From NCBI GenBank assembly GCA_951406725.2, contig OX597826.1, forward strand, positions 70,494,001 to 70,558,000: DNA of 64,000 nt, read 5' to 3'. The translations under genes were made by a program, and so were the position numbers. Origin of the DNA: Octopus vulgaris. Taxonomy: Eukaryota. Shown here in pieces: positions 1 through 61,879 of this stretch. Below the pieces are notes generated by a model that made no database searches, was not told the DNA's origin, and saw nothing but the letters and a program-made list of their open reading frames with translations. Position 1 is the first letter of the stretch, and every line of letters starts with the position of its first letter.

Positions 1-838
1 AGTCTATCACAGGATTACTCATATTTCCCAGCTGACTGGACTGGAACAACATGAAATGAAGGGTTGCCCGGTCCAGGTAAGATACCATAATCTTATGGTA
101 ATGAGTCCAACACCCTAAACACTAAGCCTCGTGCCTCCACTCTGTTACTTTAAGGGTTAGTCCACGTTAGTCTGTAAGGAACATAGGGCCTGTTTCCTGT
201 TTTCTCTCATGTGTATATATTCCTCCCTGGATGGGACGCTAGTCCATCATGAGATAACTCATTTTTACTGGAGCGCTGTGAAACGCAATGTTTTGCTTGA
301 GAACACAACGCACCGCCCAGTCCAGCATTTGAAACTACAATTTTACGATCGTGAGTTCACCACCCTAACCACTAATCCACACAGCTAATTGCTTTAATGA
401 CTCAGCTACAAAGTACGCACACACACACACACACATGCACACACTGCAAAAAATCACCACTTCTTTCAAAACAGAAACTACTTCAGTTCCAATCAGTTGT
501 TGACCCCTGTACAAAGTTCAAGTGTGTTCCATACTGGAAGGCTGCTCATGCTTCAGAGATAGCGACTTTTCAAATGTGTTTTAAAATGCCAACCCGAGCT
601 TTGCGAGCGAGTACTTCGTTGTCTCCCACACTTGATCTTTGTTGAGGAAGGGAGGAGGCCCGGTAGCTTATTATTGTAGCTGAAGTAGTTCATTCTTGTT
701 TTGAAGGTGTTGGTAATGACTGTTTGATTTAAGAAGTTTATATTGCAACTGTGTGGTTTATGGTTCAATTCCACTGCATGGCACATTGGACAACTTGTTT
801 TCTGCTATGGTCTCAGATTGACCAAAATTTTGTTAGTG

Positions 839-1143
839 GAAGCACATGGCCTAGTGGTTAGAGCAGCAGACTCACGGTCGAGGGATCGTGGGTTCGAATC
901 TCAGACCGGGCTATGTGTGTTTTTATGAGCAATACACCTAAGCTCCACGTGGTTCCGGCAGAAGGTAATGGCGAACTTCTGCTGACTCTTTCGCCATAAC
1001 TTTCTCTCACTCTTTCCTCCTCACCTGCATTTTGCAGCTCACCTTCGACGGACCGGCATCCCGTCCAGGTGGGGAACCTATACGCCAATGAAACCTGGAA
1101 ACCGGTCCTTATGAGCCAGGCATGGCTCGAGAAGGAACAAACA
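839..1143 (+). mobile_element. tRNA-derived SINE with V-domain-like 3' part, inserted into an older SINE
   Basis: A box (TGGCCTAGTGG) and B box (GGTTCGAATCTC) in the head; GACGGACCGGCATCCCGTCCAGG segment; 15-bp target-site duplication AAAATTTTGTTAGTG at 824-838 and 1144-1158. Confidence 0.85.
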
Positions 1144-1289
1144 AAAATTTTGTTAGTGAATTCTGGTTGGTAGAAATTATACAGAAGCCTAGTTGCATGC
1201 GCACGTGTGTGTGTCTGTCTGTCTGTCTATCTCTGTGCTTCAACATTGACACTTTTGATGACAGTAATGTCTGTCTCGCATAAATTGTA

Positions 1290-1525
1290 CAGAGTAGCCC
1301 AAAAGTAGGTTTGTAGTTATTCAACTATCTCTTTCGCATTCATATATTAACAATTTAGATCTTAATTATAAAAAAAATATGAAACCATTATTCTATGCTA
1401 ATTTAGTTTAATTTTGTCAGCGTCCCTTTTCAGTTTGTAAGACAGAAATTTAGATGTAATAAAACGTTTTAAAAGAAATTTAAAGTGCTTACATGATAAC
1501 TGTAAACTTATTTTGGGCCACCTTG
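1290..1525. mobile_element. Tc1/mariner-type MITE
   Basis: Terminal inverted repeats of about CAGGGTGGCCCAAAAGTAGGTTTACAGT preceded by TA; second copy in opposite orientation at 29518-29752. Confidence 0.75.
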
Positions 1526-2084
1526 CATGTTCCATAACTTGGCGGCCCAACATATGAGGACTAGTGGAGTTAAATATCTAACATGTAAACAAGCATGGAA
1601 AAAATGAACGTACAGACGATGATGTGAACGAAAACTGTTGCTAGACTTTCTCTCTCTCTCTGTCCCTCACACACACAACAACAACCAGCTTCTTTCAGTT
1701 TCCATCTACGGAACTCACTCACAAGGCTTTGGTCATCCTGGGGTTATAGTTGAAGAATCTTACCGAAAGTGTCACACAGTGAGACGGAATCTGAAACCAT
1801 GCAGTTGTGGGTTGTGAAGTGAACTTGGGAACCACACAGTTTGTGTCAACGGATTTAATGCGGAGAGCATCCAAAAACGTGTTTGGAAAAAATATGCCAT
1901 GAGGAAGAGATAACATTAGTTCCATGATTAATATTATTTTAATTATTTTGATGACACCCTCAGACAAAGCATAGACTACACTGCATACTTGTCAAAGAGA
2001 ATCACTAAGACATTGTGTAATGTTGTCCACGAGTATGAGTGGGAAACTGGGATATTTTGAAAACAACAACTATAAGGTACTTAA

Positions 2085-2371
2085 TGTATCGACCCCGAAA
2101 GGATGAAAGGCAAAGTCGACCTCGGCGGAATTTGAACTCGGAACGTAGCGACAGACGAAATACCTAATTCTTTATTACCCACAACGAGCTAAACACAGAG
2201 GGGACAAACAAGGACAGACAAACGGATGAAGTCGATTATGTTGACTCCAGTACGCAACTGGTATTTATTTTATCGATCTCGATAGGACAAACAGTGAAGT
2301 CAACCTCGGCGGAATTTAAACTCGGAACGTGAAGCATTTCGCCCGGCGTGCTAACGTTTCTGCCAGCTCGC
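2085..2371 (-). mobile_element. SINE family B, partial tandem dimer
   Basis: Same sequence as the many GGCGAGCTGGCAGAAACGTTAGC...GCCTTTCATCCTTTCGGGGTCGATAAATTAAGTACC...AAAGAAATAG copies in the window. Confidence 0.8.
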
Positions 2372-3196
2372 AGACTTAACAACAAAAACAACATCAATAA
2401 TTATTATTATTATAGGCGGGGGGGGGGGGTAAAGAATACGTGCACCACCCGTTTTCGGCATAACCCTAACCCTCGAAAACGTGTGGTGTGCGTATTCTTT
2501 ATCTTGGCATAATAATAATAATAATAATATCCCTTTTTATTACAGACACAGGGTCGGGAATTTTGTGGGAAGGGGTAAGTCATTTACATCGCCCCAGTGT
2601 TTAAATGTTACTTATTTTGTCGACCCCAGAAAGATGAAAGCTAAAGTCGACCTCGGCGAAATTTGAACTCAGAACGTAAAGACGGACGAAATGCCGCTAA
2701 GCAATTTTTGCCCGGTGTGCTAATGATTACCACTCGATAATTATAAACCTCAGTAATTTATTATTTTAAGTGTGTTTTTTCCTTAGAAAATCCCTTTTTA
2801 CATTGGTTACGTTCCAAAGTCTTAGCATTAAAAAAAAGGAAAAGAAATTAGAATAGGAAGGGAAATAACTCTGCTGAACCTGCTATCGCTTCTATGAGGA
2901 GGGTAAAAGCACGTTGACACTTTACAGACACACACACACACACACGCACATAGACGTGCGCGCGCGCTCACACAGTCATCGTTCGTTACGTAAGGGTCGT
3001 GTTCTGGAGTTTTGAAGCCTTCAGGAATTTTGGTTTGCGAAGTCTGTTCTTCTCTTCAATTTCTCTGTTGCATAACGGATAAGCCGATGGGAAAATACTT
3101 TCCATGCTTTGGAATTCCACGTTACACTTATTTCGTATTGGGATTTGGTTTGCAAGATTCTTTATATGAGTTCGTGTGTTGAAGCATGTTCCGTTA

Positions 3197-3450
3197 TGTC
3201 TGGGGAGAGTCATTTTCTTTTTGTGCCTTATAATTTAATACACTCACCGGTAAAATTTCCCCCCTTTTTTCTTATTTTTATTTTCCTAAAATTTTCGTTG
3301 CATCTTGCAACCTTTGAGGGTCAAGACTATTGAAAAGGCTGCAAGACGCAACGAAAATTTTAGGAAAATAAAAATAAGAAATAAGTGGAAATTTTACCGG
3401 TGAGTGTATTAAATTATAAGGCACAAAAAGAAAATGACTCTCCCCAGACA
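3197..3450. repeat. Long foldback (arms about 118 bp), probable Penelope-like inverted pseudo-LTR
   Basis: 3197-3315 is the reverse complement of 3334-3450; a single-arm copy of the same family lies at about 56190-56350. Confidence 0.8.
3327..3363 (+). ncRNA. Putative variant minimal hammerhead ribozyme (U3-A8 core)
   Basis: CTA-TTGAAAA-G-GCTGC aagac GCAAC-GAA-AATT-T-TAG; the opposite arm preserves stem II as GTTGC/GCAAC; stem I is only 3 bp. Confidence 0.4.
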
Positions 3451-3603
3451 CAACATTACACTTAGATTTTCAGAAATGTAAAACTTCTGCAACACACGCA
3501 CGTATTTACACACACACACAACTACTTTCCAGCGCGCACGCACAAACAATATTGGGGGACAATGAAGGAACCTCTTTGCAGTCACTGACCCTGCTGAAAA
3601 TAC

Positions 3604-3814
3604 CCTTTTACTTGTTTCAGTCATTTGACTGTGGCCATGCTGGAGCACCACCTTTAGTCGAGCAAATCGACCCCAGGACTTATTCTTTGTAGGCCTAGTA
3701 CTTATTCTATCGGTCTTTTTTGCCGAACCGCTAAGTTACGGGGACGTAAACACACCAGCATCGGTTGTCAAGCGATGTTGGGAAACAAAAAAAAAAAACA
3801 CACAAACATATACT

Positions 3815-3859
<45 letters not shown>

Positions 3860-4033
3860 TTATATACATATATATGACAGGCTTCTTTCAGTTTCCGTCT
3901 ATCAAATCCACTCACAAGGCTTTGGTTGACCCGAGGCTATAGTAGAAAACACTCACCCAAGGTGCCATGCAGTGGGACTGAACCCGGAACCATGTGGTAT
4001 CGTAAGCAAGCTACTTACCACACAGCCACTCCT
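3604..4033 (-). mobile_element. SINE family A (tRNA head, CORE-like segment, internal (TA)n/(TG)n, GTAAAAGA tail)
   Basis: Near-identical to more than 12 copies in the window; head AGGAGTGGCTGTGTGGTAAG...GGTTCAGTCCCA. Confidence 0.9.
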
Positions 4034-5647
4034 AATGCTTCAAATCACACACTACCATCTGCAAATTTAGGGAGTCATATATGGGGTTTTATATAGACCT
4101 ACATACACTGAGCGTGAAAGAGAACATGGGATGGTCACTGCCTATGGCTAAACAACAAGAGCTGTTGTAGAAGACCCCCATCTAAAGGTTCCACACAGGG
4201 AGATTGAACCTGTTCTATGGTCCATTGTGTAGATGAGTGGTTCTCATACCTTTTTCTCTGGGGCCCATTTGCATACCCCCCCAAAAATCCCGGGCCCACT
4301 GGAATTCCCCTCTTGTTAGCACTACTGATATGATATAAGTAGCCAGTTTATGTTGCTTTGAAAAGATTAATGTAGAGAAAGATGGATAAATCCAGCTTGG
4401 TGCATAAATCCTTCTGTCCCTAAAGAGTTAAATTTTGTCTGTGCTATAGAAATTTCAAATTTTTCCAACAGCTTGCAAGCAGCCTGGATTTCAAACGAAT
4501 TTAATCTCTCCCTGATGTTGCCCAACTTACCTGGAGTCTTATCTTTATGCTAATTTACATGGACTCTTATCTAGTGGTTCTTGTAAAGTGATTATAACTT
4601 TTTTGGACCATTAACCCAACCCTTATCCGTTTCACCAACCACTTACCAAACCCCTTACATCGCAACTTATACCAAAATGAATGCATAAACTTGTGTCAGT
4701 GACCCGACAGATAACATGAGTTCATTGCTGTCTCTTGCACTAGCTTCACATAGAAGCCCCAGCCCATCCAAAGTACCTTGGATCGCAGGACAACCTGCTG
4801 CGTTTACCTTAGATCGTAGGGCGACCTGCTGTGCTTGAGGAGACCTATTGAGTCAAGTACATCAACATCAAAAATCAAATGGAAATTGTAGTTGTGATAC
4901 CTGTGCCTGTTGCACATAAAAAGCACCCACTACACTCACGGAGTGCTTGACTTTAGGAAGGGCATCCAGCTGTAGAAACACTGCCAGATCAGACTGGAGC
5001 CTGGTGCAGCCTCCTGGCTTCCCAGACTCCAGTCAAACCGTCCAACCCATGCCAGCATGGAAAATGGATGTTAAACGATGATGATCTTCTGCCAAACCCT
5101 TAGATTTGGCTCACTGAACCCCTGGGATTTGACCAAACACAGGTTGAGAATCATTGTCCAAATTCATCCACCTGACAGTTATTGACAATACTGTAATATG
5201 TAAAGATAAGATATTTGTTTTACTTATTCTCACCCAAAAAGACAGATAAAGTTCAAAATAAATCGAAATAATTATTAATGAAAGAAATTGGAAAATAAGA
5301 ATAATGTTCAATCGAAATCAAAATCGATGACTGGCAACCGTGCTAGTGGAGCGCTAAGAGAACCATATGAATGAGATCGGGGCCAGAGCTGGCCTCGTTA
5401 AAAACACCATTCGAGCATGATTGTTACCTGCGTCGCCTACTGGCACTTATGCTGGTGGCACATGAAAAAACATTTGAGTGAGGTCTTTGCCAGTGCCGCT
5501 GGACTGGCTACTGTGCAGGTGGCACGTAAAAAGCACATATATATATCAATAATAACAAAGGGTAAAATTAATTAAGAAGTAATCAATAATTTCACCAAGT
5601 AGAATTTGGTATGAAAAAGGACCATTTCACGGTAAACTTAAGTAATA

Positions 5648-17995: not shown

Positions 17996-18207
17996 TACGT
18001 TTATGTATTTGTGTAGCTGAAAAGCTAAAAAGAACGCTGATGGTGACCACTGATGCGGTCACAGGAGTGTGACGAAAGAACTCTGGCCGAAGTAAGATTA
18101 AGATTAATGTAAAAAAAATAAATAACGCTGAAGCAAAGTAACACCAAATATATAGTGCGTGTGTTTTTATTGGCTAAACTGGTAAAATGACCATTCCTAA
18201 ATACAAC
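17996..18207 (+). mobile_element. 212-bp insertion carrying a hammerhead-like fold
   Basis: 13-bp direct repeat AATTCATAGTTGT at 17983-17995 and 18208-18220; hammerhead-like motif at 18044-18089. Confidence 0.6.
18044..18089 (+). ncRNA. Putative variant minimal hammerhead (C3-G8, N9=C, extra G)
   Basis: TGACCA-CTGATGC-G-GTCAC aggagt GTGAC-GAA-AGAACT-C-TGGCCG. Confidence 0.5.
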
Positions 18208-18963
18208 AATTCATAGTTGTGTTTTGTATGATAACGTAAAAGACTTGATGGTAACAGCTGGAGCCTGTTTGGACATTAGTCTGTTGGAGCAAAGCTCACC
18301 TGAGCAACTCTGTAACACAATGCTGTATATTATGCAATTATGTAAGTAATTATGTCTAGCTGTGTAATGTATTGTTCTTTTGGAAGAAATAAACTCAACT
18401 TAGTGAAGAACTCAATATGAAGTAGGAACAGCTGCAAAGTAGGACACAAACTCAGGGTTTTGTCTCATGGCTTGCTCTGTGTCAAAAGGAAAATTGAATA
18501 GAATTTGCCTTTGTAAAGAGGTGGTGGTGGTGGTGTGGGGGTAGGTATTTGAAACAGTGTGGGGAATAGTGGTATGCCAGCGTGTTAGTGGTCGTTGGAG
18601 AAATATAAAAACAATTAAACAATAATCCAAGGTGGTGCCCCAGCGTGACCACATTTTCATGACTGAAGCAAGTAAAAGATAAAAGAATAACAAAGAATAT
18701 ATTTTGTCTTTTCCTTGTTTCAGTCATTTGGATGTGGCCATGCTGGAGTACTGCTTTGTAGAGTTTTAGTTGAATTAATCTAATCCAGTAGTTTTTTTTT
18801 AATTAAAAATTTTTTTTTAAGAACTGGTATTATTCTGTCAGCCTCTTTTGCAGAACTGTTAAGTTAAAGGGATGTAAACAAAGCAACACCAGTTAAGTGG
18901 CAGTTGGAGACAAACACAGACATGCACACACAAATATTTGTGTGTGTGTGTGTGTATATTATG

Positions 18964-19636: not shown

Positions 19637-19906
19637 GTGGTTGTATACTGTCAACTTGACGTGACAGTCTTGTAAGGGAATTACACCACCATTTGCTACT
19701 CTAGTCTGATGACGGGCAAGACCCAGAAACATGCATGTCTCTAGATGCAGGACTAGCTGTTGGGGGTGCTTGTCTCCCCTTCGTAAATATATAAAGACAC
19801 AGGAAATGTGTCAAGGCCGACAGGAAGCGTCGATGCTTCCTAGGGCTAAATAGAGGTGGTGTAATTCCCTTTATGGGACTGTCACGTTAAGTTGACAGTA
19901 TACAAC

Positions 19907-19909
<3 letters not shown>
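19637..19909. mobile_element. Penelope-like foldback unit in (TA)n
   Basis: Inverted arms 19637-19690 and 19855-19909 enclosing a hammerhead motif. Confidence 0.65.
19700..19745 (+). ncRNA. Minimal type I hammerhead ribozyme fold
   Basis: TCTAG-t-CTGATGA-c-GGG caaga CCC-a-GAA-ACATGCATGT-C-t-CTAGA; palindromic stem III, GUC site with predicted cut after 19739; U.U mismatch next to the site. Confidence 0.65.
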
Positions 19910-47973: not shown

Positions 47974-48008
<35 letters not shown>

Positions 48009-48056
48009 TGTACTTGCATAGCAAGTGACCTGATCTGAGATCGTGTGCTGGAATGA

Positions 48057-48267
48057 AAACAATTGCAGCGTGGAAGGTGTTTATAAGCCATTTAAGAAAC
48101 ACACAAAACCATTAGATTCTGTGCAGCACAGAATTTTGTCAGTGAACAGGTCGCGGTCTAAAGCGACGAAAATATTTTGACAGATTAAATTTAAATGTTG
48201 AAGTGAATCTAATGGTTTTTGTGTGTTTCTTAAATGGCTTATAAACACTTTCACGCTGCAATTGTTT
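48057..48267. mobile_element. Penelope-like foldback unit
   Basis: 63-bp inverted arms 48057-48119 and 48205-48267 enclosing a hammerhead-like fold. Confidence 0.65.
48135..48184 (+). ncRNA. Putative variant minimal hammerhead ribozyme (G3-C8 core)
   Basis: TGTCA-GTGAACA-G-GTCGC ggtctaaa GCGAC-GAA-AATATT-T-TGACA; stems I and II pair perfectly, stem III is palindromic. Confidence 0.65.
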
Positions 48268-60908: not shown

Positions 60909-61414
60909 TATATATGACGGGCTTCTTTTCAGTTTCCGTCTACCAAATCCACTCACAAGGGTTTGGTCGGCCCGAGGCTATAGCAGAAGACACTTGCCCA
61001 AGATGCCATGCAGTGGGACTGAACCTGGAACCATGTGGTTCGTAAGCAAGCTACTTACCACAGCCACTCCTATGCCTTTTGTTACCATATTTTTCTAGGA
61101 ATACACTGCCTTTGTGTTAACTTTAAAAATAATGAAGAATTTAATAAAATGTCTTTATTTTTCACCTAATGTTTGAAACATAACTGAACTTGAAATTTTG
61201 ATGGAAAATGTTAAATTTAGATTAGTGGTTCTCAACTAGGGTCCATAAAACCCTTGGGGATCCCTATAAGATTGTGTTGTTAAAATTTTTATGCAATAAA
61301 TAATTGGTTCCACTTCTGCGATGCACAAAATATTTTAACAATAGCCTCGGGCCGACCAAAGCCTTGTGAGTGGATTTGGTAGACGGAAACTGAAAGAAGC
61401 CCGTCGTATATATG

Positions 61415-61468
<54 letters not shown>

Positions 61469-61476
61469 GTGTGTGT

Positions 61477-61516
<40 letters not shown>

Positions 61517-61529
61517 ATATGTGTGTGTA

Positions 61530-61604
<75 letters not shown>

Positions 61605-61879
61605 ATGTGTGTGTGTGTGTGTGTATATATGTGTGTGTGTGTGTGTATATATATATATGTGTGTATGTTTGTGTGTCTGTGTTTGTCCTCCCCAACATCG
61701 CTTGACAACCGATGCTGGTGTGTTTACGTCCCCGTAACTTAGCGGTTCGGCAAAAGAGACCGATAGAATAAGTACTAGGCTTACAAAGAATAAGTCCTGG
61801 GGTCGTTTTGCTCAACTAAAGGCGGTGCTCCAGCATGGCCACATTCAAATAACTGAAACAAGTTAAAGAGTAAAGAGTA
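60634..61879. mobile_element. Inverted pair of family A SINEs
   Basis: - copy at 60634-61076 and headless + copy at 61341-61879 with an expanded (TG)n. Confidence 0.85.

Follow-up and report, generated by a model that had tools for sequence, protein, structure and literature searches.

The window analysed here is a 64,000-nt stretch of the Octopus vulgaris genome (assembly GCA_951406725.2, contig OX597826.1, positions 70,494,001 to 70,558,000, forward strand). It contains two partial copies, in opposite orientation, of a short repeat unit that is the pseudo-LTR (pLTR) of a Penelope-like element (PLE) encoding an RT with a C-terminal GIY-YIG. The forward copy (48122..48267, + strand) spans unit positions 5-152, is a 94.6% match to the unit from locus L020 and stops at the short 3' end of the family, with AT-rich DNA beyond. 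It carries a type I minimal hammerhead (48135-48184, + strand) with G3 and C8, identified by descriptor match, fold and alignment, and in its right arm the start of the PLE ORF (48234..48267, + strand; ATG at 48234), where a 1-nt deletion causes a frameshift past codon 5. The inverted, 5'-truncated copy (48005..48119, - strand) corresponds to unit positions 89-204 and is a 93% match to the natural L020 unit. By translation it consists of the ORF start, with its ATG at 48091 (MAYKHLP...), and a tail of ~55 nt, and it has no hammerhead. In the native element at locus L131 the ATG of the 5' unit, 92 nt past G3, runs straight into the ORF, and both arms of the window copy are thus the first codons of the PLE ORF.

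Inverted arms of 63 nt had been described at this locus, and they are borne out: 48057-48119 and 48205-48267, 63 nt each, agree in 61 of 64 alignment columns, with one mismatch and two gaps. The left arm extends a further 52 nt (48005-48056) that have no partner, so the hairpin is asymmetric. Sequence and alignment place a palindrome of 9 bp with a 1-nt loop at the junction (48116..48134, no strand assigned). We infer that the 5' end of the forward copy folded back here and that a 4-nt microhomology joined it to the left arm. Since this microhomology skips unit positions 18-88, it would explain why a single hammerhead lies between the arms. With one hammerhead, a deletion in loop II and a frameshift, the window copy is probably inert. 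Taken singly, this locus with its arms is commonplace debris of a PLE, one slightly decayed copy among thousands.

The hammerhead motif and its predicted fold

Stem I of the motif is formed by 48135..48141 (5' strand) and 48178..48184 (3' strand), both on the + strand, as indicated by descriptor and alignment. It has five Watson-Crick pairs, followed by a U.G, where the family has U-A, and by a U-A. The core G3 U4 G5 A6 A7 C8 A9 (GTGAACA, 48142..48148, + strand) contains the swapped 3-8 pair, with G3 at 48142 and C8 at 48147. An extra G (48149, + strand) follows between A9 and G10.1. Stem II and loop II (48150..48167, + strand) comprise five Watson-Crick pairs (48150-54/48163-67) and an 8-nt loop, one base less than in most subfamily A copies. 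The last segment (48168..48177, + strand) consists of G12 A13 A14 (48168-70), helix III AAUAUU (AATATT, 48171-76), which includes A15.1-U16.1, and U17 (48177). On the basis of hammerhead numbering, the cut is predicted after 48177. The preliminary description had reported a core with two compensatory changes from the consensus, perfect stems I and II and a palindromic stem III. The palindrome and stem II agree with our analysis and the G3/C8 swap is real, but stem I has its U.G, and the motif differs from the strict consensus in three respects, the extra G48149 having been overlooked.

A type I descriptor that accepts any Watson-Crick 3-8 pair gave this motif as its sole match in the window when both strands were scanned. 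The three-way junction with stems I, II and III is present, with a helix III of 1 bp in the monomer or 6 bp between two copies. Folding of 48130-48190 gave z = -3.25, and 1 of 200 shuffles was equally good. U4 G5 A6, A9, G12 A13 A14, A15.1-U16.1 and H17 are complete in the window copy and in the family. The predicted ground state is a lengthened stem I with a G3.U17 wobble (-15.5 vs -14.2 kcal/mol). Closure of helix III in the monomer was computed to cost 5.4 kcal/mol, and the AAUAUU duplex to contribute just -0.2 kcal/mol. Loop II differs between subfamilies. No consistent pairing partner by which loop II could make a tertiary contact with the stem I region was seen by eye, and a pairing between loop II and the 5' end was dropped, its register differing between subfamilies. 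An Rfam scan returned 213 matches, the best 150 of which were microsatellite-driven and contained no hammerhead family.

The motif shows the traits of the minimal PLE hammerheads described by Cervera and de la Pena (2014, PMC4209133). These are the extra base between 9 and 10.1 (here G48149, a G in 11 of 11 aligned relatives), a helix II of at least 5 bp from G10.1-C11.1 (G48150-C48167) and a small palindromic helix III (AAUAUU), and the motif family lies at the same place within a PLE pLTR. That paper also describes mostly solo copies with some opposite-strand pairs, and natural 3-8 covariation, with U3-A8 in S. mansoni. The rows of its Fig. S3 that were compared all start CUGA or UUGA and include no G3-C8, the state of the focal family. 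The extra base is G in the focal family but H in the consensus given there, with one G row, and focal stem I is longer. A diminished stem III and a dimer model are shared with the small PLE hammerheads of Lunse et al. (2017), for which dimeric cleavage is described (as presented in PMC6765202). Among natural core variants, Perreault et al. (2011, PMC3088659) likewise describe a compensatory 3-8 change in nature, U3-A8, which is not associated with PLEs.

The Penelope-like element and its copied template

A DNA search of the 2.8-Gb genome returned 2,210 candidates, of which 40 were scored, with 64 matches. Across the genome the 47-nt motif has 443 exact occurrences, and a looser core pattern has at least 6,135 matches compared to 1 for the control. 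The pLTR unit is ~212 nt long. Its 5' start is fixed, and its 3' end lies near either position 150 or position 210, two sites ~55-60 nt apart. We analysed 58 distinct loci, picked by likeness to the motif region. Head-to-head hairpins make up 40 of these, a long arm facing a short one in 32, and the remaining 18 are single; the flanks are 86% AT. The hammerhead half is found on both strands at 25 of the 58.

No ORF was found in the shared flanks of the first 60 loci, because these were solo copies; the link to an ORF came via subfamily B. Copies of this subfamily share upstream DNA, and L078 has a GIY-YIG fragment ~1 kb before the unit. When the L078 GIY-YIG protein was used as query, the unit lay downstream on the same strand in 29 of 30 endonuclease loci, with L078 itself counted in the 30. 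A 1,025-codon open frame at L128 contains RT motifs, a CX3CxxC linker and GIY-YIG. In the ORF protein P0002, PF01541 (GIY-YIG) was detected with E 1.6e-5, and DK and YVDD motifs are visible in the sequence; Pfam RVT_1 gave no score in P0002, and its relative P0071 has PF00078. The pLTR-type organisation, with a partial tandem, an inverted 5'-truncated copy and a tail, is seen in L131 and in the 32 long/short hairpins among the 58 loci. PLEs as a rule have an inverted 5'-truncated copy and a tail on one side (PMC8557442), and the element shares both, together with an RT and C-terminal GIY-YIG, the CX3CxxC linker and the DK motif, with the Nematis/Neptune-type EN+ PLEs of Craig et al. (2021, PMC8557442). 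A short spacer after CxxC and an insertion after the HK motif, judged by eye without a reference tree, tentatively place it in a Nematis-like clade.

The nearest named database protein, labelled octopus, is a 100% match to the genome. Just the two known families were returned by a search for more PLE families with a foreign protein, and a viral contig search gave one irrelevant locus. Long frames behind the N-terminal peptide were rejected as read-through into TA repeats, and a Hydra/Penelope-type RT fragment near L005 was not taken as the unit's partner. At L073 (3587-4876), an RT-endonuclease fragment of another PLE type, with a YRDD motif, lies ~1 kb from a solo unit. In the window, 61406-61643 is a 67% match to the 3' UTR of the element, with the unit missing.

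A close parallel in layout is PAc, the Poseidon of Anolis (Frangieh et al. 2024, PMC11167929). As described there, its pLTR also overlaps the ORF start, its two 3' ends come from internal RT starts, between which the PLE tail lies, its targets are AT-rich and its template is uncleaved RNA. The ATG is inside the hammerhead in PAc and 92 nt after N3 in the focal family, the tail is 30-40 nt in PAc compared to ~55-60 nt, and the clades differ.

The 5' junctions of the copies were informative about the template. AGATG is preceded by C or T in 51 of 51 native contexts but by G in 23 of 35 junctions that are non-native, and a variable base (10 C, 8 T, 5 A) precedes this extra G. Genome-wide, the ratio of G to A before AGATG was 43:4, counted by eye among the 100 matches listed of 1,724. 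The 5' ends of short copies lie ~60 nt ahead of the predicted cut site, and many have a non-templated G there. A single such G at a fixed start is the expected trace of an RT that has read up to a cap. The G at a fixed start therefore suggests that the copied RNA began 23 nt before G3 and was uncut, and this G is likely cap-derived. Together with the two 3' ends, it maps the transposition template and would indicate insertion from uncleaved RNA. A spliced first exon would leave shared sequence before the G and none is seen, so a cap is preferred over a 3' splice site. Four contig sets presumed to derive from RNA, a kind of data that shows neither transcript starts, ends nor strand, gave no informative join. 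In L131 (5695-5722) and other native contexts, a branch-point-like, pyrimidine-rich stretch ends in YAG at the inferred transcription start, and an acceptor site overlapping the initiator may coexist with the cap start.

Covariation of the 3-8 pair among relatives

Free mutation of the core among family copies, which the preliminary description had set against its own proposal, is not what was found. In 75 copies chosen via protein similarity, with the motif not used, G3 and C8 were present in 73, which like the window copy fail the literal consensus of C3 and G8. Variable cells numbered 9 of 900 in the core compared to 270 of 7,273 outside it. This conservation within the family is weak evidence, because most of the 75 rows belong to one young subfamily. 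The 12 subfamily-level differences avoid all 12 core positions, with a chance of ~0.37 by our own estimate. Among the sequences analysed, G3-C8 was seen in one lineage only, where older ORFs (81-86% identical; L143, L144, L146, L147) have it like the young ones.

Relatives were compared in a structure-anchored table of 11 rows; MAFFT misaligned L171. A sister PLE, 59% identical in amino acids in the RT region, has many 1,312-codon frames (1,310-1,312) and, in the corresponding place before its homologous N-terminus, a hammerhead. Its 3-8 pair is C3-G8, and relative to the focal family it has double changes in the third pair of stem I (focal U-A to sister C-G), the fourth of stem II (G-C to A-U) and the second of helix III (A-U to G-C). 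It has C instead of A9 throughout the family, and a mismatch in stem I. Outside the motif, the sister pLTR has no significant DNA match to the focal pLTR. The sister family is very young, has an Asn-rich insertion of ~250 aa before the RT (L152, L153 (ORF 184-4119)) and is a candidate active element. A solo copy of its pLTR (18045-18210, + strand; 93% to L153) lies in the window, with C3-G8, C9 and C17. The protein P0101, a dynein regulatory subunit in the database, starts with ~150 aa of the sister PLE RT and is likely a gene-model fusion or an exonised fragment.

Among metagenome relatives, a clear hammerhead behind the ORF was found in 3 of 15 loci, with C3-G8 in L171 and L176 and U3-A8 in L172. 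The other 12 had no clear hammerhead behind the ORF, several being without the region. The unusual core of L172 (at 2497) combines U3-A8 with C instead of A9, and divergent candidates that fail the descriptor are present in L170 (4960-5010), L173 (3425-3465) and L178 (2340-2385). Older lineages in the octopus genome keep the focal stem I and stem II flanks with C3-G8 or U3.G8, as judged from 20 of the 100 listed among 226 matches. L216-L227 represent an older C3-G8 lineage, of ~200 copies by pattern, whose stem I 3' strand is unlike the focal one. L228 and L229 are focal-family copies with U3.G8 and are double mutants or relics of an intermediate state.

Across related elements, the 3-8 pair is thus found as G-C, C-G and U-A, with U.G in 3 old copies. 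U4, G5, A6, G12, A13, A14, A15.1 and U16.1 are invariant in 11 of 11 rows. G is absent at N17, where 8 of these rows have U, so the UUU cleavage triplet, earlier regarded as atypical, is ordinary for this clade; U17 is also frequent in the PLE hammerheads of PMC4209133. Focal and sister ORFs adjoin on the tree (SH-aLRT 100, quick method with no bootstrap), and the outer rows with a known motif have C3-G8 or U3-A8, which makes G3-C8 the derived state. With relatives in the C3-G8 or U3-A8 state and double changes in all three stems, the swap is natural, derived and compensatory. The proposal of a natural variant therefore survives for the family, where G3-C8 is fixed and covaries with C3-G8 and U3-A8, but the window copy that suggested it is nothing special. 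The natural G3-C8 would be what is new, the minimal PLE hammerhead and a natural U3-A8 being already known. No report of a natural G3-C8 was found in the literature searched, a novelty claim limited by the variant set of Lunse 2017 being outside the comparison.

Probable retention of a self-cleaving fold

The 3-8 pair (C3-G8) forms in the active conformation of the hammerhead (PMC3884650), and its retention as C-G, U-A and G-C thus points to the catalytic fold. An engineered C3G/G8C change partly restores cleavage in PAc, whose PLE hammerhead requires protein (PMC11167929), and this engineered combination is the natural state of the focal family. The minimal PLE hammerheads in the literature cleave slowly even when dimeric (PMC4209133). 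We consider it probable that the short pLTR insertion, through its family-wide G3-C8, keeps a slow, dimer- or protein-dependent self-cleaving fold.

According to this model, a capped transcript would start 23 nt before G3, and the element protein would prime reverse transcription at either of two internal ORF-start sites, giving the long and short ends. Uncleaved RNA, which is the main insertion substrate in PAc (PMC11167929), would be copied to the cap to give a solo unit with the extra G. The inverted arm, which in the window copy has no hammerhead, would arise when the 5' end folds back and the template is switched there. Two hammerheads, from the 5' and 3' pLTR of one transcript or from two RNAs, would pair via the 6-bp helix III, and a minority of molecules would be cut after U17, probably with the aid of the protein of the element. 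Cleavage may trim tandem precursors, or it may send RNA to translation or decay instead of transposition. The swap would be permitted by U17, which relatives already have and which would keep a G3-C17 mispair from forming; in an engineered G3-C8 variant, activity was lower with C17 than with G17 ('data not shown' in PMC3884650).

A stronger form of this model, which we advance tentatively, is that G3-C8 is a naturally evolved active hammerhead, in a clade that uses C-G, U-A and G-C at 3-8 and tolerates C9, that U17 and the extra G enabled it, and that cleavage is a switch. The clade would then offer a natural set of variants of a re-tuned catalytic core, overlooked by standard CUGANGA searches. 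A cut 60 nt past the cap would remove RNA from the transposition pool and leave an uncapped message that starts just before the ORF. If the motif cuts, nature has carried out in full the base-pair exchange by which laboratory work confirmed the active hammerhead structure, and descriptor searches based on C3 or U3 miss families with thousands of copies. Controls are at hand in the sister with C3-G8, C9 and intact ORFs, the U3-A8 relatives and the 1,025-codon frame of the family itself, and they make the role of PLE hammerheads directly testable.

C9 in the young sister family and in L172, together with the stem I mismatch of the sister, suggests relaxed catalytic constraint in the clade. It bears on a different explanation, that the element is as described and its fold no longer cuts, being kept as a structure (for protein binding, as a 5'-UTR fold or through promoter overlap) whose shape is selected. 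The sister with C9 has many intact ORFs, the cap-type G shows uncleaved templates, and no peak of 5' ends was seen at the predicted cut site: among 5' truncations at unit positions 55-71, counted by eye in 100 listed of 327 matches, 2 clear and 3 ambiguous ends fell at position 62, ~4 at 63 and ~7 at 64. For PAc, HHR mutants are described as having no effect on insertion in vitro and RNA-seq ends as absent from the cut site (PMC11167929), and the authors of PMC4209133 leave roles other than cleavage open. Against this stand the 3-8 pair of the active conformation (PMC3884650), kept in three Watson-Crick forms, the eight invariant positions and the absence of G at N17. We regard loss of cutting as doubtful, and a retained, slow self-cleaving fold as the better account.

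Chance fixation is improbable. In this scenario, the ribozyme was already dispensable when a neutral double hit gave rise to G3-C8, which became fixed in a single master and was then amplified by hitch-hiking. The data contain one G3-C8 lineage, with thousands of copies from few masters, and double mutants at 3 and 8 occur at about the chance rate (7 of focal type among 100 rows listed). However, two transversions exactly restore pairing and leave the other core bases untouched; paired changes in three stems also became fixed in this lineage, and its loop II was rebuilt between one subfamily and another. That G3-C8 accompanies the older ORFs (L143, L144, L146, L147) as well as the young ones also speaks against this scenario.

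The preliminary description took the arms to hold and frame the ribozyme, and a foldback DNA element or a viroid- or retrozyme-like hairpin RNA with arms as a functional scaffold would fit the 211-nt hairpin, which folds at -113.6 kcal/mol and preserves stems I and II (paired with probabilities of 0.85 and 1.0), and the similar layout at 19637-19909, but this is very improbable and already largely refuted, since arm length and junction vary from locus to locus, 18 of 58 loci have no hairpin, the arms are asymmetric and encode the PLE ORF start, and the native element (L131) has no inverted arm ahead of its hammerhead. The arms are an inverted second copy of the element end, likely no more than a by-product of insertion. 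A MITE or foldback DNA transposon, with fixed terminal inverted repeats, was rejected for the same variability and asymmetry and for the loci that lack arms. A non-LTR retrozyme, with tandem non-coding repeats, intact hammerheads and no ORF, was rejected as the copies are dispersed and tied to an ORF. The one tandem array seen, at L071 (6972-9733), has seven 426-bp repeats of the unit plus flanking DNA, and a SINE-like repeat interrupts an upstream copy; the repeats that were read have a disrupted stem I, so this array is likely a local amplification and not a retrozyme.

The foldback at 19637-19909, which had been likened to the focal one, does have the same layout but belongs to an unrelated repeat family (3,226 first-look candidates), with no DNA match between the two. 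It is a hairpin insertion with a canonical CUGAUGA hammerhead, a 4-bp stem II and a 10-nt palindromic helix III. Compared to its own sister copies, it has T instead of A at position 2.1, and its stem II is closed by a C.A pair, position 10.1 being mutated.
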